Assembly: GCA_964603995.1 (NCBI GenBank)
Contig: CAZRXH010000001.1
Span: 1,975 to 65,974, forward strand
Origin: an uncultured Bacteroidota bacterium
Lineage (GTDB): Bacteria > Bacteroidota > Ignavibacteria > Kryptoniales > JAKASW01
Direction: 5' to 3'
DNA: 64,000 nucleotides
Shown: piece after piece, positions 1,084 through 13,604 of the stretch
Layout of the letters: every line of letters starts with the position of its first letter
Position numbering within the stretch: position 1 is the first letter of the stretch
The notes under the pieces: generated by a model
Seen by the model: the letters and a program-made list of their open reading frames with translations, nothing else
Told to the model about the DNA's origin: nothing
The model's database searches: none
Made by a program: the position numbers and the translations under genes

Positions 1084-1769
1084 TTGTCTTTTCCATGCAT
1101 TTTCGAGTATTTCTCAATCATCATCTCTGCATACCGGACCATCTCCTCAGGGCCCATCGGAAACTCCTTCGACTCCGCTACAAACTCTTGATATGACTTG
1201 AGCGCTTTCTCGTATTCCTTCATTCTTTCAAAGTACATAGCAGTGTCGTATTTCTTTATCATGTTCTGGTACGACTGCCAGCCATTTTCCACCCTGATCA
1301 GTTCTTCCCTGTATTTTTCAGGTGGTGACTCAGAGCCGACATCCACCGTGACAGTTTTCATCTCCGGTTTAGATTTATAGCTAAAGGGGATAATAACCCA
1401 CACAGCTACCGGCTTATCGCGGAGAATTGCGGGAGTGAATTTGTACTTCATGGCAGCATCAATGGACGGCCGGTTGAATATCTCATTACTGCTCTTCAAG
1501 ACAACGGCTTTCTTCACATCTCCATTTGCATCGACCCATAGCTTCACGATAACGCGCCCGCCAATTTGTTCCTCTTTTGCCTCTTCCGGATATTCCGGTA
1601 TTGCCTGCGAGACTATCTGAGGCGGTGTATCGACATTTACGAAATCGGGAGACGCTCCTGAAGTATCCTGTGTTGCTATGCTGATGGTAGTCGTATCCTG
1701 CGCCCAAAGAGACGGGGAAAACAAAAAGGACAGGGCAAGCAACAAAACAATATGTTTCCTGGTTTTCAT
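1080..1769 (-). CDS. TonB C-terminal domain protein with signal peptide
   Basis: The segment PEYPEEAKEEQIGGRVIVKLWVDANGDV...AAMKYKFTPA matches the TonB_C fold pattern. I moved the start to the internal ATG at 1769 (MKTRKHIVLLLALSF), which is preceded by AAGGAGGAA. The longer ORF N-terminus (to 1925) is Arg/Ala-rich and looks non-coding. Confidence 0.75.
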   Translation of the reverse strand: MKTRKHIVLLLALSFLFSPSLWAQDTTTISIATQDTSGASPDFVNVDTPPQIVSQAIPEYPEEAKEEQIGGRVIVKLWVDANGDVKKAVVLKSSNEIFNRPSIDAAMKYKFTPAILRDKPVAVWVIIPFSYKSKPEMKTVTVDVGSESPPEKYREELIRVENGWQSYQNMIKKYDTAMYFERMKEYEKALKSYQEFVAESKEFPMGPEEMVRYAEMMIEKYSKMHGKDK

Positions 1770-1866
1770 CTCATTCCTCCTTTCGGTTCGCGCATCGACA
1801 CTGGATAAACGACTTGCGTCGGCATCCCGTATACCACCTGCGACGGCGGCGCTTTCAGGACCGCAT

Positions 1867-2229
1867 TTAATTCTCTCTGGTGCACGTCTTCCTGCATCGT
1901 GAGCCAAACGTGAACGAGAGCACAAGCAGTATCACCGCTGCGGCGGAAACGGCATACACTGGTAGCCTCAGATGGTACCTCAGAGGATTGCTCCTTACTT
2001 CTTTTCTCATCTTCTTCACGATCGTGTCATCAAGGTCGTCCGGGTACGGAAGTTTCCGGTCCTGAGCAAGCGATCGGAATTTCACTGCCAAGTTGAAAAA
2101 GCTCTGACATTGCTCGCATCCGTACAAGTGAGAAAGCACGCCGTCGAAGTCGTCCGCGTTTCCCTCCCTGTCCAGAAATACACTCAATTTCTCCTGTACT
2201 AAGTCGCAGTTCATAAATTCAGTCTCCAT
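1867..2229 (-). CDS. anti-sigma factor, zf-HC2 type, single TM
   Basis: H-x3-C-x2-C motif (HLYGCEQC), a C-terminal TM helix, and an 11-nt overlap with the upstream ECF sigma gene. Confidence 0.7.
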   Translation of the reverse strand: METEFMNCDLVQEKLSVFLDREGNADDFDGVLSHLYGCEQCQSFFNLAVKFRSLAQDRKLPYPDDLDDTIVKKMRKEVRSNPLRYHLRLPVYAVSAAAVILLVLSFTFGSRCRKTCTREN

Positions 2230-2545
2230 ATAACTTCTTGTAAATAGCAGCTGCCTGTCTCCTCGCTTTGAACAGTTTCGATTTCACGGCGGACACGGTG
2301 GTATCAAGCGCCTGTGCGATCTCTTCGTAACTCAACTCCTCCCATTCGCGGAGGATCAGTATCTCCCTGACACGGATTTCCCCGTCAAACCGGGCCGGGC
2401 TTTCGAAGAACCTGATGAAGACTTCCTGAACAACGTCCTTCGCTTCGTCCCCATCGTTCAGCATACGGCAGCAGAAATTGTAGATGCCGGCTTTGTGCCG
2501 GTTATAGACCGCCTCAAACTCCCCGCTCTTCTCTACTACGTGCAA
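2219..2545 (-). CDS. ECF-type sigma-70 family factor, abnormally short (108 aa)
   Basis: A region 2.1/2.2-like N-terminus (DVVQEVFIRFF) joins directly to region 4 (REILILREWEELSYEEIAQALDTTVSAVKSKLFKARR). TTG start preceded by GAGGTGA. Confidence 0.6.
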   Translation of the reverse strand: MHVVEKSGEFEAVYNRHKAGIYNFCCRMLNDGDEAKDVVQEVFIRFFESPARFDGEIRVREILILREWEELSYEEIAQALDTTVSAVKSKLFKARRQAAAIYKKLYGD

Positions 2546-2950
2546 GCTCTCACCTCTTCAGGTTGTGCCGCATTTCGTTCCTCCGACAAGTCCTTCAAAT
2601 CAGTTGCACACCGCGCAGACGTGAAACCATGGACTTCCAGATAACCCGCCAACCGGGCAAAGGTTGCTCTGAAACTTTCGAATTCCGCTCGTGAAATTCA
2701 AGCTTGGAGCGATCACTTCTCAAAGGCGTATATTGGGAATATGCCGGTCAATACTCTTAACCGCGAAGATCGCCGTGAAACGCCAAGACTTTTGATTATG
2801 AATTTTTGCGCCGCTCAGCGTGCTTTGCAGTCAAAAGACACTTTGATTCAGGCTTGCATCACCGGATCCGCGGGATTTCCGTTTTCAACCTTGTCCGACA
2901 TTGTCTTTCATCCCACACGCCGATAAATTGGAAAAAAGGCATGGCATATC

Positions 2951-5443
2951 TTGAAGAATGTAAAGAAGACTTCTGAGAAGACCTCACGCATACGCGAACT
3001 CACTCCAGACGAATTGACATGGCGCTGCCCGGAGAGCGAACTGAAATTCAATTCGACGGCGGAGCTGGAACCAATAGACTCGATCATCGGGCAGGAACGG
3101 GCAGTGAAGGCACTCCAGTTCGGCGTCGAGATAAAGAGCCCTGGATACAACGTCTTTATCAGCGGTCTCGCTGGCACGGGAAGGCTGACGACGATCAAAC
3201 GGCTTCTTGAAGAAATCACAGTAGAATGTACTCCATCGCCGGACAGATGCTATGTCTATAATATCAAAGACCCTGATAACCCAAACCTGCTCGAATTCGA
3301 CCGCGGACACGGGAGAAAATTCAAAGAAGATATTGAAGCGACGGTACGCTATCTGAGAAGAAAAATCCCGGAGCTTCTTACCGGCGAAGCATACACCGAC
3401 GCACGAAACAAAATCGTGGAGTCCTACGAGAAGCGCGAGAAAGCACTTCTGATGGAATTCCAAAAGAAAATTGAGAGCCAGGGATTCGCATTAGTGCCCG
3501 TTCAAGTGGGCCCTATCACGCAGCCGCAGATATTTCCGACGTTTGAAGGGAAACCCATTCAGATCGAGGAGCTCGAGCAGCTGGCAAGTGAAGGAAAGAT
3601 TACCATTAAAGAATATGCCGACGCGGAGGAGAAGCTGCAGGAATTCAGGAAGGAACTCGCCTCGGTCGCAAGGAAAGGATCTGCGCTCGCGGGCGAGTTG
3701 ATGAGAAAAGTCGAAGATATGGAGAAGCAGACAGTCGCCGGTGTGATCGGATTGATTTTTGAAGAATTGGAAAGCCGTTACAGAAGCAATCAGAAAGTGC
3801 TCGATTACCTGAAATCGCTTCAAGAGTATACGCTGGGAAATGTACAGATATTCAAGAAGGGGGATGAACAGGGCGCAGAGGAGGCAATGCTTCCGCCGGG
3901 TAAGATCGAGAGCGATCCGGTTATTGTTTACCGCGTCAACGTTATACAGGATAATACCGATAAAGAACCTTGCCCCGTAGTGATAGAGACAAGCCCGACG
4001 TACACGAACCTGTTCGGGACGATCGAGCGGACGGTGGACGTGCGCGGCTTTTTTCAGACCGATCATACCAAAATAAAAGGCGGCGCGCTGCTGCGGGCAG
4101 ACGGCGGATTCCTTGTCATGAACGCGCTTGACGCCCTGACGGAGCCGGGCGTCTGGAAAGCTCTGAAGAGAACATTGATCTACCGGAAGCTGGAGATACA
4201 GCCTTTAGACACTTTCTTCCAGGTAAACCCGATCGCTTTGAAACCCGAGCCGATCGACGTCAATGTGAAGGTCATCCTGATCGGCGATCCGTATATCTAT
4301 GACATTCTTTACGATTCCGAAGAAGATTTCAAGAAGATATTCAAGGTGAAGGCAGATTTCGACCGCGAAGCGAAGCGCGACGAACAGAAGATCGATGAGT
4401 ATGCGAGGTTCATCGCACGCATCTGTAAGGTCGAGAAGCTGATGCACTTCGACAAGTCGGGAGTCGCGGCGGTAATCGAATACGCGGCGAGACGAGCCGG
4501 GAGACAGGATAAGCTCTGGACACGTTTCAGCGACATCGCAGATCTGCTGCGCGAAGCGAGCTTCTGGGCTTCGAAGAACAGCCACACACTCGTGAACCGG
4601 GAAGATGTATTGAAGAGCCTGGATTCGCTCATCGAGAGGAACAATCTCTACGAAGACAAAGTGCAGGAGATGATCGAAGAGGATCTGCTGATGATCGACA
4701 CGACAGGAGAGCGTGTCGGACAGGTAAACGGTCTGTCGGTTTACGACATCGGCTACTACTCGTTCGGCAGGCCGACGAGGATAACCGCGGCTGTTGGTGC
4801 CGGGAAAACGGGGATCACGAGCATCGAGCGGGATTCTAACTTGTCCGGGAAGATCCACGACAAGGGAGTCGCGACACTCTCGGGCTATCTGCGCGAAAAG
4901 TTTGCGAAAGAGAAGCCGCTGTCACTTTCGGCGAGCATCGCATTCGAGCAGTCGTACAGCGGCGTCGACGGAGACAGCGCATCTTCGACGGAGCTTTATG
5001 CGATACTATCGAGTCTCAGCAATCTTCCCATCAAGCAAGGAATTGCCGTCACCGGGAGCGTGAACCAGAAAGGCGACATACAGCCGATCGGCGGCGTGAA
5101 CCAGAAGATTGAAGGCTTCTTTCAGGTCTGCAAGGCGAAGGGGCTGACCGGCGAACAGGGGGTCATCATACCGACACGGAACGTTAAGGACCTCGTGCTG
5201 CGTGACGAAGTGGTACAGGCGGTGAAGGAAAAGAAGTTTCACATTTATCCTGTCGCGAAGATCGAGGAAGGTATCGAGATACTTACAGGCAGCCCCGCCG
5301 GCGAGCAGAGCGCGAAGGGTGCGTACGAGAAGAAGTCCGTGTTTTATCTCGTTGAGAAGAGACTGAAGGAAATGTCCGGAGAGAAGGAGAAAGAGACACG
5401 GAGAACGGGAAAAAGGAAAACAGGAAAAAGAAGACCGAGATAG
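2951..5443 (+). CDS. Lon-like (LonC/COG1067-type) S16 protease with degenerate AAA module
   Basis: C-terminal Lon protease domain (GDSASSTELYAILSSLSNLPIKQGIAVTGSVNQKGDIQPIGGVNQKIEG, Ser-Lys dyad context). The N-terminal P-loop-like motif GLAGTGRLT has Arg in place of the Walker A Lys. The Walker B position reads FLVMNALD (no DE). There is a long coiled-coil insertion. The TTG start is uncertain. Confidence 0.85.
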   Translation: MKNVKKTSEKTSRIRELTPDELTWRCPESELKFNSTAELEPIDSIIGQERAVKALQFGVEIKSPGYNVFISGLAGTGRLTTIKRLLEEITVECTPSPDRCYVYNIKDPDNPNLLEFDRGHGRKFKEDIEATVRYLRRKIPELLTGEAYTDARNKIVESYEKREKALLMEFQKKIESQGFALVPVQVGPITQPQIFPTFEGKPIQIEELEQLASEGKITIKEYADAEEKLQEFRKELASVARKGSALAGELMRKVEDMEKQTVAGVIGLIFEELESRYRSNQKVLDYLKSLQEYTLGNVQIFKKGDEQGAEEAMLPPGKIESDPVIVYRVNVIQDNTDKEPCPVVIETSPTYTNLFGTIERTVDVRGFFQTDHTKIKGGALLRADGGFLVMNALDALTEPGVWKALKRTLIYRKLEIQPLDTFFQVNPIALKPEPIDVNVKVILIGDPYIYDILYDSEEDFKKIFKVKADFDREAKRDEQKIDEYARFIARICKVEKLMHFDKSGVAAVIEYAARRAGRQDKLWTRFSDIADLLREASFWASKNSHTLVNREDVLKSLDSLIERNNLYEDKVQEMIEEDLLMIDTTGERVGQVNGLSVYDIGYYSFGRPTRITAAVGAGKTGITSIERDSNLSGKIHDKGVATLSGYLREKFAKEKPLSLSASIAFEQSYSGVDGDSASSTELYAILSSLSNLPIKQGIAVTGSVNQKGDIQPIGGVNQKIEGFFQVCKAKGLTGEQGVIIPTRNVKDLVLRDEVVQAVKEKKFHIYPVAKIEEGIEILTGSPAGEQSAKGAYEKKSVFYLVEKRLKEMSGEKEKETRRTGKRKTGKRRPR

Positions 5444-5545
5444 GGTTGAGCAGAGAATAGATATATTCAGCGGGACAAGGCATCGACAGTCAGCAGCCAT
5501 GGTATAAGTTGAGTCATCGATTTCTTATTTCTGCGGGTCAATAGT

Positions 5546-5821
5546 TTGTTGAGTGAAGTGGATGCTTCGGATTGGGCAACTTACCGCTGGGAAGCTGGCG
5601 CAACCCATCCGGCCAGCGGCGCAGGTGATTTGGACGACGGTGCATTTCTTCGGGAGAACGGCGACTCTCGTCTGGCCAACGGAACCTGTCATCCTGCCAA
5701 TGGAACCTGTGGTTCCGCCAAAGGAACCTGTGCTTCTCTCAACGGAACTTGTCTTCCCACCAACGGAACCTGCCGTCCCGTGAATGGAACTTTTGCCTTA
5801 GTTGGCGGAACCTGTCCTTAG
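5546..5821 (+). CDS. candidate small ORF encoding seven x-N-G-T-C-x-P heptads (speculative)
   Basis: The ORF ends exactly at the end of the 21-bp repeat array. Differences between repeats are concentrated at synonymous third codon positions in this frame. There is no SD and only TTG/GTG starts, so coding status is uncertain. Confidence 0.3.
   Translation: MLSEVDASDWATYRWEAGATHPASGAGDLDDGAFLRENGDSRLANGTCHPANGTCGSAKGTCASLNGTCLPTNGTCRPVNGTFALVGGTCP
5675..5821. repeat. 7 x 21-bp tandem repeat
   Basis: The GGAAC core recurs every 21 bp at 5681, 5702, 5723, 5744, 5765, 5786 and 5807. The unit consensus is gccaaYggaacctgYNNtcc. Confidence 0.9.
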
Positions 5822-5940
5822 GCTGAGCGCGCATTTCGTTCGGACGTCGGAGACTATCCTTTGTTCAGACAGCGACGACTGTTGTTCGGACGGAGGCGAC
5901 AGCAGAAATTCGAGAAATCTGAGGGGTTCATCCCTTCTCC

Positions 5941-6051
5941 GTGCCAAGCTCCCGCTTGGCACGGGAGACCGTGGAGCTCTGCTTCTTCTGAGGTGGACAT
6001 AGACTGTGAAGCTGAGCTTCAAGAGCTACTTCCCAAGCAGAGCTTGGGAAG
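5941..6051. repeat. cluster of short GC hairpins (AAGC-N3/4-GCTT family), copy A
   Basis: Three hairpins: gtgccaagc-tccc-gcttggcac (5941-5962), tgaagc-tga-gcttca (6007-6021) and cttcccaagc-aga-gcttgggaag (6029-6051). The ~75-bp stretch 5975-6053 aligns with 7267-7339. Confidence 0.7.
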
Positions 6052-6208
6052 GAAGAGGCGGAGCTTTCATCTTCTGCAACCCGGCGGCGTACCCAGTCAG
6101 GAAATCGGCGGTGATGCCTCGTTCCTGCAGTCTCGCAAGATTGGCTTCTGCTTTTTTCGACAGAGCGCCGTGCTCCTGTTCGAGTCCTTCGGGTGTTGCG
6201 TATGGCAT
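6026..6208 (-). CDS. small hypothetical protein (60 aa)
   Basis: The ATG at 6208 is preceded by AAAGGAGGTGAATCACA (a strong SD at good spacing). I recognise no family. The 3' end runs into hairpin repeat copy A. Confidence 0.35.
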   Translation of the reverse strand: MPYATPEGLEQEHGALSKKAEANLARLQERGITADFLTGYAAGLQKMKAPPLPSQALLGK

Positions 6209-6470
6209 TGTGATTCACCTCCTTTCAGTTGCCTTTTTCAGCGTTAATAAAAGGAGGCAGTAAGGTGGAACAGTAATGGGAGTAGTGCCCTACAGCCCCG
6301 TGATTGCTGCGGAATTTAAAAGAACGTCAAGCCCGGCTTTATTGGAGCGTACCACCATGTCGCATGCGCACAGATGCACGACCATGGGGAGAGGTGATGG
6401 CACGCTGAATATAAGAGAACAGGCTAACTAAATACCGATTACGATGGGCCGCCGCGCAAGACGTTCCGGG

Positions 6471-6868
6471 TTAGAGGAGCTCGGATGGCGTCTTTCGATT
6501 GAGCCCGGTCCGGTCAAAGTCACTGTCAAAGCTGACTATTGTCAGCTTATATCTTTCCGCCACCGAGTAATGGTAGGCATCGTCGAAATCCAGACCGAAT
6601 CGTTCAGCATTATCGGATATACGCGTGATTTCAGCGAGTGGCATCGTCACTATTTCGACCCCTGCGCCGTAAATCATATCAACTATGAATTTGTCGAACA
6701 CTCCCTGCTGCTTGGCGCGAAATAGGAGAACGCCAATCGAATGCATAGAGAAATCGGTAATGTGAAACTCATGGGCGCATGCGTTGAAAGGAGTCTCTTC
6801 ACAATTTCAGAGTTCTCCTGTCGGAGCAAAACCTCGAGAAAAATATTCGTGTCGAGAAGGATTTTCAC
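6471..6868 (-). pseudogene. vapC: PIN-domain toxin VapC, interrupted by a frameshift
   Basis: ORF 6683..6868 gives MKILLDTNIFLEVLL... and ORF 6471..6746 gives ...FDDAYHY...SFDSDFDR. Together they make one PIN domain, but they lie in different frames. The frames switch near 6765-6775, where LSTHAP changes to HEFHITDFSMHSIG. Confidence 0.75.
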
Positions 6869-7074
6869 AATTCACCGATGCGCCACTCGGACACCTTGTG
6901 TTGTAGTTCAACTGAAGTGTATTGCGTTTTCAGGTTTTGCAATGCACCTTCCCAGTCGAATTTCGGTTGACCGTTCCTTTTCTTCGCCTGCTTCTCCACA
7001 AGAGACTGTGCATACTCCATTACTTGCTTCTGGAGATCCTCCGGCAGCTGTTTTATCATTTCCTCGATGCTCAT
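6865..7074 (-). CDS. VapB-type antitoxin (DUF2281-like)
   Basis: MSIEEMIKQLPEDLQKQVMEYAQSLVEK pattern. 4-bp ATGA overlap with the PIN gene. I chose the start at the internal ATG (7074) rather than the ORF start at 7110. Confidence 0.65.
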   Translation of the reverse strand: MSIEEMIKQLPEDLQKQVMEYAQSLVEKQAKKRNGQPKFDWEGALQNLKTQYTSVELQHKVSEWRIGEL

Positions 7075-7121
7075 GAAACTATTCCTTTCAAACCTGTCCG
7101 CAACTCGCAACCTTCAAGATA

Positions 7122-7150
7122 ACTTTATCACAACGTCGTCACTTTTGCAA
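7122..7150 (-). promoter_or_regulatory. sigma-70-like promoter candidate for the vapBC pair
   Basis: On the minus strand: TTGCAA (7150-7145), a 17-bp spacer, then TAAAGT (7127-7122), ~48 bp upstream of the ATG at 7074. Confidence 0.35.
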
Positions 7151-7230
7151 CATCCGGATCGCGGAAACCACAATGACGTAAGATCTACCCGTGTCAATGC
7201 AGCCCATCCTTGTTCCAAAACCTTCCCTTC

Positions 7231-8890: not shown

Positions 8891-9148
8891 TCAATAATGG
8901 AACTTGCACGAAATTATAATTATCTCCTGATCGGCGACTTTATAAACAAGGCGATTCTTATCATCGATCCTCCGCGACCAAAGCCCCTGCAACTCGTGCT
9001 TCAACGGCTCAGGCTTACCTGCCCCCGAAAACGGATCCCGCTGGACATCCTTGATCAGCCTTATTATCCGTGTGTAGATCTTCTTGTTCCCCGTCGACCA
9101 CCCTGTAAAATCCTCAAACGTACCCGGAACAAACGCGATCCTTCTCAC
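8891..9148 (-). CDS. yoeB: YoeB/Txe family toxin
   Basis: 85 aa. The segments FTGWSTGNKKIYTRIIRLIKDVQRDPFSGAGKPEPLKHELQGLWSRRIDDKNRLVY...ISCKFHY match the YoeB pattern. Confidence 0.85.
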   Translation of the reverse strand: MRRIAFVPGTFEDFTGWSTGNKKIYTRIIRLIKDVQRDPFSGAGKPEPLKHELQGLWSRRIDDKNRLVYKVADQEIIIISCKFHY

Positions 9149-9375
9149 ATCTTATCCGGATCCACGTACTTGTATCCCTTTTTGTTTTCCGATTCCCGCA
9201 AAGACTCGATGAGATGAATCCTGTTGGCTTCAGTAGACAGGAGATATTCCGTTTCGTCATTTTCAGGATTCACCAGAACTATAATCTCCACGACATCACC
9301 CTTGTGAAGTTCGGGGGAATTTACTTCGATGCGCCCTTCTTCACCGACAACGACCTTCTTCCTCAAACCGTTCAT
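9145..9375 (-). CDS. yefM: YefM-like antitoxin with atypical N-terminal segment
   Basis: The C-terminal ETEYLLSTEANRIHLIESLRESENKKG matches the YefM toxin-binding region. 4-bp overlap with yoeB. I chose the start at the internal ATG 9375 (AAGGAGGAA upstream). The ORF extension to 9549 is Arg-rich and implausible. Confidence 0.7.
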   Translation of the reverse strand: MNGLRKKVVVGEEGRIEVNSPELHKGDVVEIIVLVNPENDETEYLLSTEANRIHLIESLRESENKKGYKYVDPDKM

Positions 9376-9552
9376 CTTCTCTTCATTCCTCCTTTCATTT
9401 GCATTGCCATCATGCCTGAAGTTAGTTCTGCCGGGATTCTTTTTCAAGTTTTCTCCTCCCGATACCCCGACCCGCGGACAATGGAACGCCTGAGGTGAAT
9501 AGACCGTCTCCCGACGTGTCATCACACGTCGCCGTTGAGCCTCGTGCAAACA

Positions 9553-9797
9553 AAACCTTATCTATGTTTTCCAACCTTAGTAACATCATACTCCCACAAC
9601 GACAACCTTATTACCTTATTCCGGACCACAACTGCGTGACCTGAGTGATAAGGTAATAAGGTTCGGGAAACGGGGAGACGACTTCCTACTAAGGTTTATG
9701 GAATTTGTCCGAATAAGGTTCTCAAATAAGGTGATAAGGTCGGTGAAAAGGAGGGACGGCTTGTTACTAAGGTTTGTGGAACACCCGTCGATAAGGG
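9553..9797. repeat. three copies (one inverted, two direct) of a ~65-70-bp TAAGG-rich unit
   Basis: Unit A (9648-9720) and unit B (9726-9797) align at roughly 75-80%: ATAAGGTRATAAGGT...TACTAAGGTTTRTGGAA...ATAAGG. The reverse complement of 9553-9622 aligns with the same unit, giving a large imperfect palindrome centred near 9632. Confidence 0.75.
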
Positions 9798-9980
9798 CGA
9801 GCCCGGGAAGTAGAGAGGGAAGAGTCCTTAGGACAACTCCCTCGTAGCTTTGGGGTTTTTCCTGGGAAGAAGGGGATCGCCACGTCCTTCCTTCGTTTGG
9901 ACGGACTCACGATGACGCGTAATTCGGGCCCGGCGAAACTGCGACCCACTTCTGAAGTGAGTCGCAGTTGGCCACGACAT

Positions 9981-12900
9981 TTACTTTAGATTAAATCCTT
10001 CCACAACCACCTCCGGCTTCCCGCCGCGAGTGTCGGAGTTCTGTACCTGCATGTCGATGGTGCGCCGATCACCGGGCATGATGGTTATGAAGTTGTCACT
10101 GTAAATTGCCGGAAGTATCCGCCTGCCGTCCTTGCTTCCGACTACTTTGAGTTTGACGAGGAGCGCGGGATATTTCGTGCGATTGACGAGCGTCGTCTTC
10201 ATGTACCAGCGTCCGCCTCTGCGCGACATCTGCGTGCTGGCGGCGAGCTTGACTTTCGGAATCGTCTTGACGGCTTCCATGCTGCCGCCCTCCTGCGACG
10301 AACCTTTCTCCAAACCGCGCCAGTAAAAGTTTCGTGAGATCACCTTACTGCCCCGCCTGAGCTCGAGACTTATGAAGTAAACGCTGCTCAATCCTTTCGG
10401 ATGGCCGAGCGGAAAGAGGGAAACCATGTCGTCTTCGGGAACATTCACGCGGGCGGTCTTATTCATCTTCACCGCGCCGTTCAAGTCGAGTATTTCCATC
10501 GTCGCGGTCAGACCGGAACCGTCCGGGACGCTGTAGTTCACGACCTCTATGCTGTCGGTGTACGCGTTCCACTGTATATGAAGCGGCTGACATGCCTCCC
10601 TGCATCCGAAGTACGCCGCGGTCGGATCGAAATAGTAGTCGTAAGTTTGCCAGACGAGCGACGGCCACGAAGAATGTGTCATCCATAGAAGGAGCCCCAT
10701 CCTGTTCTTTGCCTGTGCTTCGAACATCGCACGGTAGCCGGTGTATTCCATCCAGTCGGCGAACCAGAGCCATTCTCTCAGACTGTCAGCGGTACCGAAA
10801 GTTTCTTCTATGGCCTTGTTAAACGTCTCTCCTCTTTGCGCACCGCCGAGAGTGAAATCGTGGACCCCCCACATGTTCGATTGCGGCCACATATCTTTGG
10901 CAGGCATCATCCGCTTGAGGCTCGAATATGAGACGATCGCGGGCAATCCCATCTCGCTGTGCAGCCTCTTCGTCGCCCTGTACTGGAAATAGAACTTGAG
11001 GGGCATGAGGCTGTACGGTCCTCCTCCGCTCACCGGACCAAAAGCAGAGTTGGGAATGTACTTGATCCCCGGATCGAGCTCCGAAATCATCTTCACGAGC
11101 GCTGAGTCGATGACCGGCGGCGGGTTCCCTTCGTTCCGCCCGACGAAGATAGCAATTGAAGGATGATTCCGTATGCGCATTACGAAGTCCTCAGCGTTCC
11201 GTATGAACATGTTCGGATGATTCGGGTTCGGCCCGTCGACGGGGTTTGCCAACCAGAAATCCTGCCAGACCATGATACCGTACTTGTCGCATGCATCGAA
11301 GAACGCATCGTCCGCCGTCTGCCCGACCCAGTTGCGGATCATCGTGAAGTTCATCTCTTTGTGATAGCGCACGGCGATGTCGTACTCCCTCGCGCGGTAA
11401 CGGAGCATATCTTCGGGAAATCCCCAGTTGCCGCCTCGGGCGATGAAGCGCCTGCCGTTAACCCAAATTCTCAGCGCTCCTCCTCTTTCCGAATAGGACA
11501 TTTCCCTGACGCCCGTCTCGAAGGATTTCGAATCCGAGATTTTACCGTCTGCGACAAACTCGAGTTTCACCTTGTACAGGTTCTGTGCACCGTAACCGTT
11601 TGGCCACCAGAGTTTCGGATGGCGGAGCTTAAGCTGCGGGTTGGTCGATGGATCGAGCGTGATCGTCTTCGTCTCAGACGGAGTGAGAGACACGTTCTGT
11701 TTGAACGCGACACTGCCGAACTTGCCCCGCAATACTCCATTGACTTCCTTTGCGACATGGTTATGGAGCGTCACTTCAATACTGACATCTGCGACGGTCG
11801 TGTCCGGAAGAGGAATCTTCGTGGTGACGTAAGGATTCAGAATCGTCACCGGTCCGCTTTCAGACAAATAGACATTGCTCCATATGCCGGTATTCCGTCC
11901 GCGAATCGTCGGTATCCAATCCCAGCCGACGGATGCCTCGAACGTCGGATCGTCAGCTCCGAGCTCGCCGCCGTTCGCGTCTGTATTGTACCTGTCCTGT
12001 TCGGTCGGGAAACCCGGTGTCGCGTTCTTGATTATGCGAACCGCGAGGATATTTGTCTCGCCCGGCTTCAGAATGCCGGTGACGTCAAACCTTCCTCTTA
12101 TGAACGCGCCGTCGATGCGGCCGAGATCGTGACCGTTGAGGTACACCTCTGCTTTCCAGTTTATTCCGTCGAAATTGATATATGTCCTTTTCCCCTCGTA
12201 CGAAGCTGGCGCCGTGAACACGTCCCGGTACCAGTAATCGGAATAGAAATACGAGTCGGATATCAGGACCTGGTTGTCGCCAAAGTTCGGATCGGGTATG
12301 GCGCCGTCGTTCAGGTAACTCGTAAGAATTGTTCCCGGAACGGTCGCTATCATCCAGCTCTCGTCGTTGAATCCCGGCTGAGACAGCTCTGCGCCGTCGG
12401 CATGCACGAGCGTCGATCGCTGAAGCCTCCATGAACCGCCGGAGAGTTCCATCTTGCTATGCTTACCCATCGGCGCGAGTGAATGCTGAACCGGAAGTGG
12501 CCCGCCCGTTCCGAAGACTTCAAGCTCGCTCAGAATATATCCATCACTCACATCGGCAGGTTTCGTCATTAAGACACGGACGTATCTTGCCTTCACTTCT
12601 TTGCTCAACCTGATGTTGGCTTCATTGCCGGGATTGTTCGGTAGCGATGCCACATCCTTCCAATTCTCGGCATCGTTAGATACCTGTATCTGACCTTCAC
12701 GCGCCGGACGAATCCAGAAGAGCTTGACGTCGTTGAACGAACACCGCGCTCCTAGGTCGACATACACCCACTCTTCTCCTGATCCGGCACTCTTCCATGC
12801 GCTGGTAAAGTGGTACGGTCCGCCGATCTTTGCAAACTCGCCTTTGCCATAAATCCCGAATATGCCGACGCTCCAGCTCTTCGCGTTAGGCGAACTGACA

Positions 12901-13604
12901 GAGAAGCGATAGTACCTGTAATGAACCGTGGAATCGATTTTGAATGGATAATCGAACACTCTCAGGTTCGGCGGAAAGAACCTTCGGAAGAAACCAGTGA
13001 CTGTATCACCGGGTAAACCGTCTCCACCCACGGTTCCCAGTTTCTCCCAGCCCGCACCATCTTGAGACCCGCTGACACTTATTTCCCAATGCCGGGGCTC
13101 CAGACTGTCGACCAGTACCGTTCCGGCGAGACTGATGCTGTCCACAGCCGGGATGGCGTAGTGACTGGCCATCTCTACCTGTAACCATGCGGTTGACGAG
13201 TCGAGTGTTATCTGGGACATCGCGTGCCGGTCGAGGACCCACTCCCTCTCCGTCTTTGGAAGAATACCTGCGGTACTTGTTGTCGTGACTATCCAGCCGG
13301 GAAGCGTCGTGTCGATTATGCCATCCGTGACAAGCTGCGCCGTCAGATTGTAATCGTATGCGCTCGACTGATACGCCGGTCTGAGCAGCGCTAGGTTGCG
13401 ATAATGTGTAGAGTCGATTCTCGTACCGGGAGAAAAATTCTCCGCCGGGTCGCCGGGATAGACTCCGACCCCGAAATTGTATTGCTGTGCCATAGTGGCA
13501 CATACGGACACTAAAAGAAAAAACACGGCAGAAAGTAATAGCCTTGCCGCAGTCGTGGTCGAGGAAGTGTGATCGGATTGTTTCCGGTGAGCTGAACTAT
13601 TCAT
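9981..13604 (-). CDS. glycoside hydrolase family 2 (beta-mannosidase/exo-glucosaminidase-like) with two N-terminal F5/8 type C (discoidin) domains
   Basis: GH2 sugar-binding pattern (INWKAEVYLNGHDLGRIDGAF...NILAVRI), a catalytic-region NEG motif (FVGRNEGNPP), discoidin-like ends (YILSELEVFG), and an N-terminal signal/TM. Confidence 0.85.
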   Translation of the reverse strand: MNSSAHRKQSDHTSSTTTAARLLLSAVFFLLVSVCATMAQQYNFGVGVYPGDPAENFSPGTRIDSTHYRNLALLRPAYQSSAYDYNLTAQLVTDGIIDTTLPGWIVTTTSTAGILPKTEREWVLDRHAMSQITLDSSTAWLQVEMASHYAIPAVDSISLAGTVLVDSLEPRHWEISVSGSQDGAGWEKLGTVGGDGLPGDTVTGFFRRFFPPNLRVFDYPFKIDSTVHYRYYRFSVSSPNAKSWSVGIFGIYGKGEFAKIGGPYHFTSAWKSAGSGEEWVYVDLGARCSFNDVKLFWIRPAREGQIQVSNDAENWKDVASLPNNPGNEANIRLSKEVKARYVRVLMTKPADVSDGYILSELEVFGTGGPLPVQHSLAPMGKHSKMELSGGSWRLQRSTLVHADGAELSQPGFNDESWMIATVPGTILTSYLNDGAIPDPNFGDNQVLISDSYFYSDYWYRDVFTAPASYEGKRTYINFDGINWKAEVYLNGHDLGRIDGAFIRGRFDVTGILKPGETNILAVRIIKNATPGFPTEQDRYNTDANGGELGADDPTFEASVGWDWIPTIRGRNTGIWSNVYLSESGPVTILNPYVTTKIPLPDTTVADVSIEVTLHNHVAKEVNGVLRGKFGSVAFKQNVSLTPSETKTITLDPSTNPQLKLRHPKLWWPNGYGAQNLYKVKLEFVADGKISDSKSFETGVREMSYSERGGALRIWVNGRRFIARGGNWGFPEDMLRYRAREYDIAVRYHKEMNFTMIRNWVGQTADDAFFDACDKYGIMVWQDFWLANPVDGPNPNHPNMFIRNAEDFVMRIRNHPSIAIFVGRNEGNPPPVIDSALVKMISELDPGIKYIPNSAFGPVSGGGPYSLMPLKFYFQYRATKRLHSEMGLPAIVSYSSLKRMMPAKDMWPQSNMWGVHDFTLGGAQRGETFNKAIEETFGTADSLREWLWFADWMEYTGYRAMFEAQAKNRMGLLLWMTHSSWPSLVWQTYDYYFDPTAAYFGCREACQPLHIQWNAYTDSIEVVNYSVPDGSGLTATMEILDLNGAVKMNKTARVNVPEDDMVSLFPLGHPKGLSSVYFISLELRRGSKVISRNFYWRGLEKGSSQEGGSMEAVKTIPKVKLAASTQMSRRGGRWYMKTTLVNRTKYPALLVKLKVVGSKDGRRILPAIYSDNFITIMPGDRRTIDMQVQNSDTRGGKPEVVVEGFNLK

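Follow-up and report, generated by a model that had tools for sequence, protein, structure and literature searches.

The non-coding gap between a GH2 gene and a YefM-like antitoxin gene in an uncultured Bacteroidota bacterium (Ignavibacteria; Kryptoniales; contig CAZRXH010000001.1) contains three copies of a short TAAGG-rich repeat, and the question that this locus raises is what kind of element these copies make up. We analyzed it within a 64-kb stretch of the contig, which we call the window. An initial annotation, made from the letters of the DNA, had described one inverted and two tandem copies of a 65-70-bp unit and had offered three explanations: sites for a DNA-binding protein, a nested miniature inverted-repeat transposable element (MITE), or a structured non-coding RNA. 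We find that the window units belong to a repeat family that forms inverted arms around a clade of subclass-1.2 Y1 genes, and that many gene-less, extragenic copies of this family occur in several phyla. The locus itself is probably a non-autonomous, gene-less, REPIN- or MITE-like copy of a Y1-element repeat whose full form is an inverted unit, an HUH/Y1 gene encoding ~150 aa, and a forward unit.

Three units in the window

A module of ~75 bp occurs three times at window positions 9550-9797, once inverted (unit C) and twice in tandem (units A and B). The units are recognized by R1, a sequence-only profile built from 108 units that directly flank the Y1 gene in metagenome loci. Against the window R1 gives exactly three matches, which are units C, A and B, and no other up to E = 10, in agreement with the copy number and orientations first proposed. 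Each unit contains a double heptamer site (D), an internal site (c) and a distal site:

9550..9621, minus strand: unit C, the inverted arm (R1 match, 41.5 bits, E 6.6e-12; inverted repeats I1, I5 and I7)
9604-9619: double heptamer site D of unit C, AACCTTATTACCTTAT on the plus strand
9573-9583: internal site c of unit C, AACCTTAGTAA on the plus strand, which is TTACTAAGGTT on the minus strand
9554-9561: distal site of unit C, AACCTTAT on the plus strand
9620..9647, no strand: the 28-nt C/A spacer, which separates the facing D sites
9647..9722, plus strand: unit A, the forward arm (R1 match, 39.4 bits, E 2.9e-11)
9648-9663, 9686-9696 and 9712-9720: sites D (ATAAGGTAATAAGGTT), c (CTACTAAGGTT) and distal (AATAAGGTT) of unit A
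9724..9797, plus strand: unit B, a slightly degenerate tandem duplicate of A (R1 match 9724-9781, 26.1 bits, E 4.1e-7)
9726-9741, 9764-9774 and 9790-9797: sites D (ATAAGGTGATAAGGTC), c (TTACTAAGGTT) and degenerate distal (GATAAGGG) of unit B

The inverted copy, placed at 9553-9622 by the initial annotation, does match the unit and carries the internal and distal sites as well. Across the three copies the D and c sites are separated by 20-22 nt and the c and distal sites by 11-15 nt (22 and 15 nt in unit A), an architecture that places them within the family described below. Units A and B, first estimated to align at roughly 75-80%, are 80% identical over 56 nt (9648-9703 and 9726-9781), with a start-to-start distance of 78 nt; because this identity includes the spacer, unit B is a recent local duplication of A. 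The 17-mer TACTAAGGTTTRTGGAA has just two occurrences, at 9687 and 9765. The D sites of C and A, 28 nt apart, are complementary at all 16 positions, so the suggestion that the first two units can pair as a hairpin is borne out.

The heptamer ATAAGGT occurs 11 times in the window, with 8 of these occurrences inside 9555-9740; shuffled sequences average 3.5, and none of 100 shuffles reaches 11. When TAAGGT/ACCTTA and TAAGGG are counted together there are 12 sites within 245 bp, consistent with the earlier count of more than ten in 250 bp. No open reading frame (ORF) of note crosses the units, which are flanked, as described, by the GH2 stop (9981) on one side and the YefM-like start (9375) on the other. 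What needs revision is the unit itself: the repeat is real, but it is not conserved throughout its 65-70 bp and is better described as four heptamer sites with length-constrained spacers.

Six other loci share the arrangement seen in the window, with an inverted-forward pair extended by one further forward or inverted unit. Two Logan contigs from the same strain are identical to the window across this region and therefore provide no comparative information. Between unit C and the yefM start, at 9513-9532, there is also a perfect 8-bp hairpin (CGACGTGT-CATC-ACACGTCG) that has no counterpart in the other loci.

A dispersed, extragenic repeat family

We scanned one genome per GTDB species with the pattern ATAAGGTNATAAGGTN{18,34}TAAGGT and obtained at least 120 matches, where about 18 would be expected (our own arithmetic, assuming equal base frequencies); the module is present at more than 117 GTDB genome loci. 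Among the 158 matches listed, the base between the two heptamers, which the pattern leaves free, is A in 154; the second heptamer has a T after it in 127, and in 124 the third has CTAC or TTAC in front of it. This conservation at positions on which the pattern places no demand indicates that the family matches are not due to chance. The hosts among the matches listed are mostly Bacteroidota, together with metagenome-assembled genomes (MAGs) of Ignavibacteriota, KSB1, Planctomycetota, Desulfobacterota and Gemmatimonadota, and include a 4.8-Mb Desulfobacterales contig. Complete genomes that scored in our searches include Ferruginibacter paludis, Terrimonas pollutisoli H1YJ31, a Prolixibacteraceae chromosome (OY761460.1) and Melioribacter roseus. 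In viral contigs the matches are mostly 8-nt tandem arrays and chance matches, with one convincing unit (locus L009; loci are numbered with an L throughout).

The consensus of 325 units is (A)ATAAGGTAATAAGGTT - 21-25 nt (mode 23) - (TT)YTACTAAGGTT - 10-14 nt (mode 12) - AATAAGGTT(T), with the distal site present in about half of them; the unit variants include CTAC and TTAC subfamilies and a D-spacer-D subfamily. An arm therefore consists of four heptamers in the same orientation, two abutting (ATAAGGT-A-ATAAGGTT), one YTAC-tagged (YTAC-TAAGGTT) and one distal (AATAAGGTT), and the spacers between them are held in length and show no conservation of sequence. The units are extragenic: an ORF of at least 150 aa overlaps 3 of 166 units (1.8%), compared with 71% of random spans taken from the same loci. 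They cluster in alternating orientation, and 34 groups among the unit-anchored loci consist of an inverted unit facing a forward one. All-against-all clustering of the flanking ORFs shows that the neighboring genes differ from locus to locus and share no family except one protein of ~150 aa; neither a regulator gene nor a DDE transposase recurs near the units in the unit-anchored loci.

Two further features of these loci deserve mention. The densest cluster seen is a 3-kb array (L058:1770-4800) with ~10 forward units, partial inverted partners and one Y1 gene (3287-3730), lying between a 506-aa ORF and a second ORF, both unannotated. In two unrelated loci a TAAGGTT heptamer is split precisely, between ATAAG and GTT, by a palindrome of ~21 nt, CCTGCCTGGYCRGNCAGACAGG. 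It was seen in L193 (upstream of the Y1 gene, ~2940-2965), L030 (~2220-2245), L094 and L062:925, free-standing in some, and has the look of another very small hairpin element, one whose target is the heptamer.

A Y1 gene between the arms

The only recurrent neighbor of the units is an HUH/Y1 protein of ~150 aa (147-152 aa). It matches Pfam Y1_Tnp (E 4.7e-18) and NCBIfam IS200 (56.8 bits, cut-off 55), and its score of 20.5 bits against NCBIfam REP_Tyr_transpos, for which the cut-off is 80, does not identify it as a RAYT. A search of the PDB returned IS200-type TnpA structures (Sulfolobus and ISDra2, E ~1e-4) and no RAYT structure. The HUH histidines H55 and H57, Y115, WQ and YI..QP.HH (Y---Q--HH) are invariant; the motifs read YILNQPEHH, AWQ and EH[VAM]H[FI], and the tail EEY..F.KFYQKT is conserved. 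Set beside the published table of Y1 subclasses, the protein appears to fit subclass 1.2.

The association of the repeat with this IS200-like, subclass 1.2-type gene is tight and symmetrical. Where the gene is present it lies exactly between an inverted and a forward unit, with the D sites adjoining its start and stop codons. In the reciprocal direction, metagenome loci were picked by the protein alone, and the best 80 of at least 424 relatives (among 600 candidate stretches listed) were inspected for units. An inverted unit was found no more than 130 nt upstream in 64 of the 73 testable loci, and a forward unit no more than 130 nt downstream in 69 of 78. The offsets are stereotyped, with D at -27 and +12 to +21 and c at -60 and +50 to +60.

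A gene or gene fragment is found in 12 of ~115 unit-anchored loci, so that ~90% of unit loci, and hence most copies, are gene-less. Gaps between facing D sites have a bimodal distribution, with one class of 9-53 nt (41 gene-less doublets) and another of 434-488 nt (gene inside). The 28-nt gap between C and A falls within the shorter class, which makes C and A a gene-less doublet, and the spacer at 9620-9647 occupies the position taken by the ~450-nt Y1 gene in gene-containing copies. Units C and A are thus the arms of an element that lacks its gene, with B a tandem copy of A. A homologue of the spacer was sought in the other loci and none was found.

Phage records contained no match to the Y1 protein, and plasmid records contained two, both distant. 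On the Bernardetia sp. megaplasmid NZ_CP147018.1 (L217:1280-1460) there is a distant subclass-1.2 gene with 44% identity. Upstream of it are two inverted pairs of a REP-like palindrome, GTTGCnnnGCAAC (GTTGCAGAGCAAC), rather than a heptamer array, and the palindromes are preceded by the same TTCTAC tag as the third heptamer of the window family. The Bernardetia repeat suggests that in one clade the heptamer array has taken the place of a hairpin.

Proposed mechanism and element ends

RAYTs are thought to act on REPINs in trans. By analogy, a Y1 protein presumably encoded elsewhere in the genome would recognize the heptamer array and process or mobilize the doublet in trans. On single-stranded DNA the two arms may pair block by block, forming helices of 16, 11 and 8 bp separated by internal loops and bringing the ends together. 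Folded as single-stranded DNA, the C+A doublet gives a three-helix hairpin in which the helices are the paired heptamer blocks (-29.1 kcal/mol, z -4.9). IS608 has TTAC and REPs have a GTAG/CTAC tag, and by analogy with these the YTAC beside the third heptamer would be the best candidate for a cleavage site.

Short target-site duplications are not seen at the ends of the doublets: the longest direct repeat close to these ends has a mean of 2.21, compared with 2.36 in controls, and direct repeats of 3-10 nt do not exceed the frequency found in mismatched controls and are absent from the window flanks. Longer duplications do occur. Eight of 29 isolated doublets are bracketed by imperfect direct duplications of flanking DNA of ~18-80 nt, above the 99th percentile of controls with the same geometry (L065:1096-1220, L073:1563-1678, L035:236-348, L138:3644-3771, L164:2084-2211 and three copies in L062). 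The three copies in L062 are paralogous, so there are fewer independent events than cases. These duplications lie at variable distances from the arms and could represent either scars of insertion or local duplications that the element promotes; none brackets the window copy.

Several observations weigh against reading the window locus as a gene-less mobile copy. A tblastn search found no Y1 gene in the 64-kb window. Among the matches listed there are at most two loci per assembly, far below classical REPIN copy numbers. Two GH2 orthologues (77% and 74% amino acid identity) have no units in their contexts, a pattern that fits either insertion or loss and leaves mobility unproven. Single units form no hairpin better than shuffles (mean z +0.19, 116 units), and RNAalifold predicts 0 pairs in the 108-unit alignment. 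To our knowledge every characterized Y1 transposase needs a hairpin, and for arms that have none a paired-arm structure or a different mode of recognition must be assumed. Finally, the spacers of two facing arms are no more alike than random pairs (0.53 and 0.50), which implies that the copies are old rather than recent products of transposition. The same figure implies that only the heptamers and the spacer lengths are under constraint.

It is tempting to generalize, and we do so tentatively. Subclass-1.2 Y1 enzymes may recognize an array of four heptamers, in the same orientation and at fixed spacing, instead of a hairpin at each end, and in this way may maintain REPIN-like doublets across phyla, with insertion sometimes leaving target duplications of 18-80 nt. 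If so, they would represent a distinct branch of single-strand (possibly double-strand) transposition, or of its domestication, in the FCB group and other bacteria.

Related loci and neighboring genes

A contig of an uncultured Bacteroidetes MAG, CAWEBD010000109.1 (loci L087 and L214), is collinear with window positions 1120-7223 and shares a TonB-like protein, an ECF sigma factor, a LonB-like protease (80-92% amino acid identity) and a DUF2281 antitoxin. Immediately beyond the gene for this antitoxin it has, within 1.4 kb, two gene-less doublets, a doublet that encloses a Y1 gene and one more gene-less doublet. The units of L087 are the nearest relatives of unit C, spacers included (75% over 73 nt, 88% over 33 nt). 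In the window a 2.3-kb block encoding an alpha/beta hydrolase, YoeB and YefM separates the DUF2281 gene from the units, and on their far side lies GH2, where L214 has an AAA_13 ATPase gene. Taken with the GH2 orthologue contexts, which offer no 'empty site' with sharp boundaries, this comparison places the units in a variable segment and not in a conserved feature of the GH2 locus. The only presence/absence difference that we found is between the orthologous loci L156 and L164, whose flank is 98% identical; one of the two has an additional gene-less doublet of ~230 nt, with a 16/18-nt direct repeat bracketing it.

After the forward arm of several doublets there is a segment of ~107 nt (L087:6944-7050, L087:7898-8000 and L141:1192-1294) whose copies are 75-83% identical and contain the stem CGAGGC..GCCTCG. 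This L087 segment, like the window flanks and spacer, is lineage-specific, and it has no match in the window.

The features next to the units in the window all lie outside the element:

9145..9378, minus strand: YefM-like antitoxin gene (from the ORF list and a gene call in the identical contig L001)
8891-9148, minus strand: YoeB, directly downstream of the YefM-like gene (PF06769, E 3.8e-34)
9981-13604, minus strand: GH2 gene
9937..9969, minus strand: terminator-like hairpin immediately following the stop codon of GH2 (inverted repeat I4, with 16-nt arms that are 94% complementary and 1 nt apart)

The start codon of the YefM-like gene (9375-9377) is ~175 nt from unit C. Its product has no Pfam match at E <= 0.01; judged by eye, the C-terminal half is YefM-like and the N-terminal half AbrB/MazE-like. 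A second toxin-antitoxin module at 6471-7110 comprises a PIN-domain toxin, present as two overlapping ORFs (6471-6746 and 6683-6868) and probably frameshifted, and the DUF2281 antitoxin (6865-7110). The adjacency of toxin-antitoxin genes also led us to consider an integron attC site. No integrase or recombinase recurs among the neighbors, and by eye the unit does not fit the attC R''/R' consensus, so we rejected this idea. Elsewhere in the window, the ECF sigma-factor ORF (2219-2545) encodes 108 aa, compared with 168 aa in its syntenic L087 homologue; it keeps parts of regions 2 and 4 and lacks ~60 internal residues. A 21-nt (or 42-nt) tandem repeat with ~5 copies and 73% matches (5675-5792) sits in a 2-kb stretch without convincing genes.

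Competing explanations

The main rival, to which we give a modest chance, is that the locus is an in-situ relic: the Y1 gene would have been deleted from a cluster like that of the syntenic relative, leaving inert units that were never mobilized without the gene. In L087/L214 the Y1 gene and its doublets do lie in the same variable region beside the DUF2281 antitoxin, with units that resemble C; the window has no Y1 gene; and the unrelated spacers of arms C and A are what would be expected of old copies. Nevertheless, although the spacers are now no more alike than chance would give, the D sites of C and A still match at every position (16/16) and their c sites remain intact, which argues for continued constraint on the heptamers. 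Repeated gene loss in place is also hard to invoke for the gene-less ~90% of unit loci, which lie in unrelated contexts; L156 and L164 differ by a whole doublet; and the 2.3-kb hydrolase-YoeB-YefM block intervenes between the units and the end of the L087 synteny. Less likely still, and in our view improbable, is an element with a host function, in which the heptamers would bind a nucleoid or regulatory host protein, or would serve a BIME-like role in genome structure or at transcript ends, with the Y1 protein as maintenance enzyme or passenger. Such an element might affect yefM-yoeB, the window copy being ~175 nt upstream of yefM. Heptamers and spacer lengths kept across phyla while spacer sequence is free are typical of a protein-binding array, and a strictly extragenic location and BIME-like alternating clusters fit as well. 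Against this, the neighboring genes are unrelated and no regulator gene co-occurs, and symmetric bracketing of one gene at fixed offsets is the signature of element ends and not of a regulon. A scan of the locus for sigma-70 promoters and terminators stayed at chance level, with no sigma-70-type promoter inside the units, although Bacteroidota-type promoters fall outside that scan.

The remaining alternatives overlap with explanations offered by the initial annotation. Its nested MITE comes closest, in that the locus combines a gene-less inverted doublet with a tandem unit, both from a family that elsewhere brackets a transposase gene. An ordinary MITE of a DDE transposon, or ends of the Tn7/Mu kind with multiple transposase-binding sites, is nonetheless very unlikely. 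Inverted arms with several subterminal repeats do resemble Tn7/Mu/Tn402-type ends, and the copies are dispersed and non-coding. But no DDE transposase recurs near them, and the only associated gene, which fills the space between the arms exactly, is HUH/Y1; together with the lack of short target-site duplications, this enzyme type indicates that the element is not an ordinary DDE-type MITE. Dispersed copies with inverted repeats and target duplications had been named in the initial annotation as the mark of such a MITE; the dispersed inverted doublets are there, and the short duplications are not. We give equally little credence to a structured non-coding RNA, or a set of sibling small RNAs, even though similar units stand in tandem between genes and C+A can form a long hairpin. 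The proposal fails on the folding results for single units and for the 108-unit alignment. An Rfam scan of the whole window gave 0 matches at the gathering score and, at E <= 10, only chance-level miRNA and snoRNA noise (E 0.86-9.2). No terminator belongs to the unit, and the units occur in both orientations relative to their neighbors and symmetrically around a gene. As for sites for a DNA-binding protein, this part of the earlier account survives in that conservation is limited to the heptamers and the spacer lengths, and in that there is now a specific candidate for the protein; the iterons or integrase arm-type sites that it envisaged do not. Direct repeats of a short motif at fixed spacing are what replication-origin iterons or att sites would show, yet we rate this the least probable reading of all. 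There is no rep or integrase gene nearby and no tRNA or tmRNA gene in the 64-kb window, GC skew is monotonic through the unit region, and the Y1 protein is missing from phage records and has just two matches among plasmids.

Relationship to known systems

Hairpin-guided transposition of single-stranded DNA, like the domestication of transposases, has its textbook example in the HUH/Y1 enzymes, among them the IS200/IS605 TnpA proteins and the RAYTs. The repeat described here supplies a concrete, non-hairpin DNA partner for a large clade of subclass 1.2 (at least 424 metagenome loci), so that what these enzymes bind and cut can now be tested. It also raises the questions of whether REPIN-like populations exist outside Proteobacteria and why the same 7-mer array is kept across phyla. 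In practice, a profile of the R1 type would label conserved intergenic blocks that are now unexplained in environmental genomes.

Compared with IS200/IS605 elements such as IS608 and ISDra2, the closest structures and profile match are IS200-type, the gene is small, target duplications are lacking and non-autonomous derivatives exist. The HUH motif and catalytic tyrosine are likewise shared, as seen in the related loci, the window having no gene. The ends of IS200/IS605 elements are not inverted repeats, each has its own subterminal hairpin, copies are near-identical within a genome, and gene-less derivatives are known as PATEs. In the present family, by contrast, the ends are inverted and without hairpins, and the spacers have diverged.

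The resemblance to REP/REPIN-RAYT systems (TnpA_REP), reportedly described by Nunvar in 2010, Bertels and Rainey in 2011 and Ton-Hoang in 2012, extends to an HUH/Y1 gene that lies between inverted copies of a short, extragenic repeat. Shared too are dispersed, intergenic, gene-less inverted doublets with a short variable spacer, BIME-like alternating clusters, the lack of a short target duplication, and a CTAC/GTAG tetranucleotide beside the conserved block. However, the protein here is not a RAYT, its tyrosine motif being YILNQPEHH and that of RAYTs Y..NP. The unit, in spite of its CTAC/TTAC tag, is no palindrome, whereas a REP is an imperfect palindrome of 20-40 nt with a GTAG or CGTC head. 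Copy number appears low here, compared with tens to hundreds of REPINs per genome, and one repeat sequence spans several phyla, in contrast to REPs, which are reported to be specific to a lineage.

TIRtrons, with their TIRYT proteins, are Y1 genes whose flanking terminal inverted repeats (TIRs) are not REPs and also occur as small families (Di Nocera et al. 2013, PMC3733652). They share with our family the non-REP inverted repeats around a Y1 gene and the occurrence of copies as dimers or clusters. Of the TIRYT proteins, 20 of 26 belong to subclass 2.1, all with a helix-turn-helix-type C-terminal domain (Quentin et al. 2018, PMC6006769). TIRtrons have class-2 proteins, and most of their TIRs contain GGGGWSAS; our family has a 150-aa class-1 enzyme and an arm that is a 75-bp array of TAAGGTT heptamers.

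TnpA_Y1 subclass 1.2 itself has been defined by a length of ~148 aa, WQ and Y---Q--HH, occurs in Bacteroidetes and Cyanobacteria at low copy number, and is listed without an associated repeat (Quentin et al. 2018, PMC6006769). The Y1 protein found here agrees in its ~148 aa length, WQ, Y---Q--HH, specific C-terminal tail and Bacteroidetes hosts. It differs in its HuH motif, EH[VAM]H[FI] where the published form is DH[IV]H, and neither the heptamer-array arms nor the gene-less doublets are described in PMC6006769. In the literature searched we found no description of the heptamer motif, no later work on subclass 1.2 and no published cognate DNA for it. The system is in kind REPIN/TIRtron-like, and its repeat family is apparently undescribed, crosses phyla and is tied to an orphan Y1 subclass.

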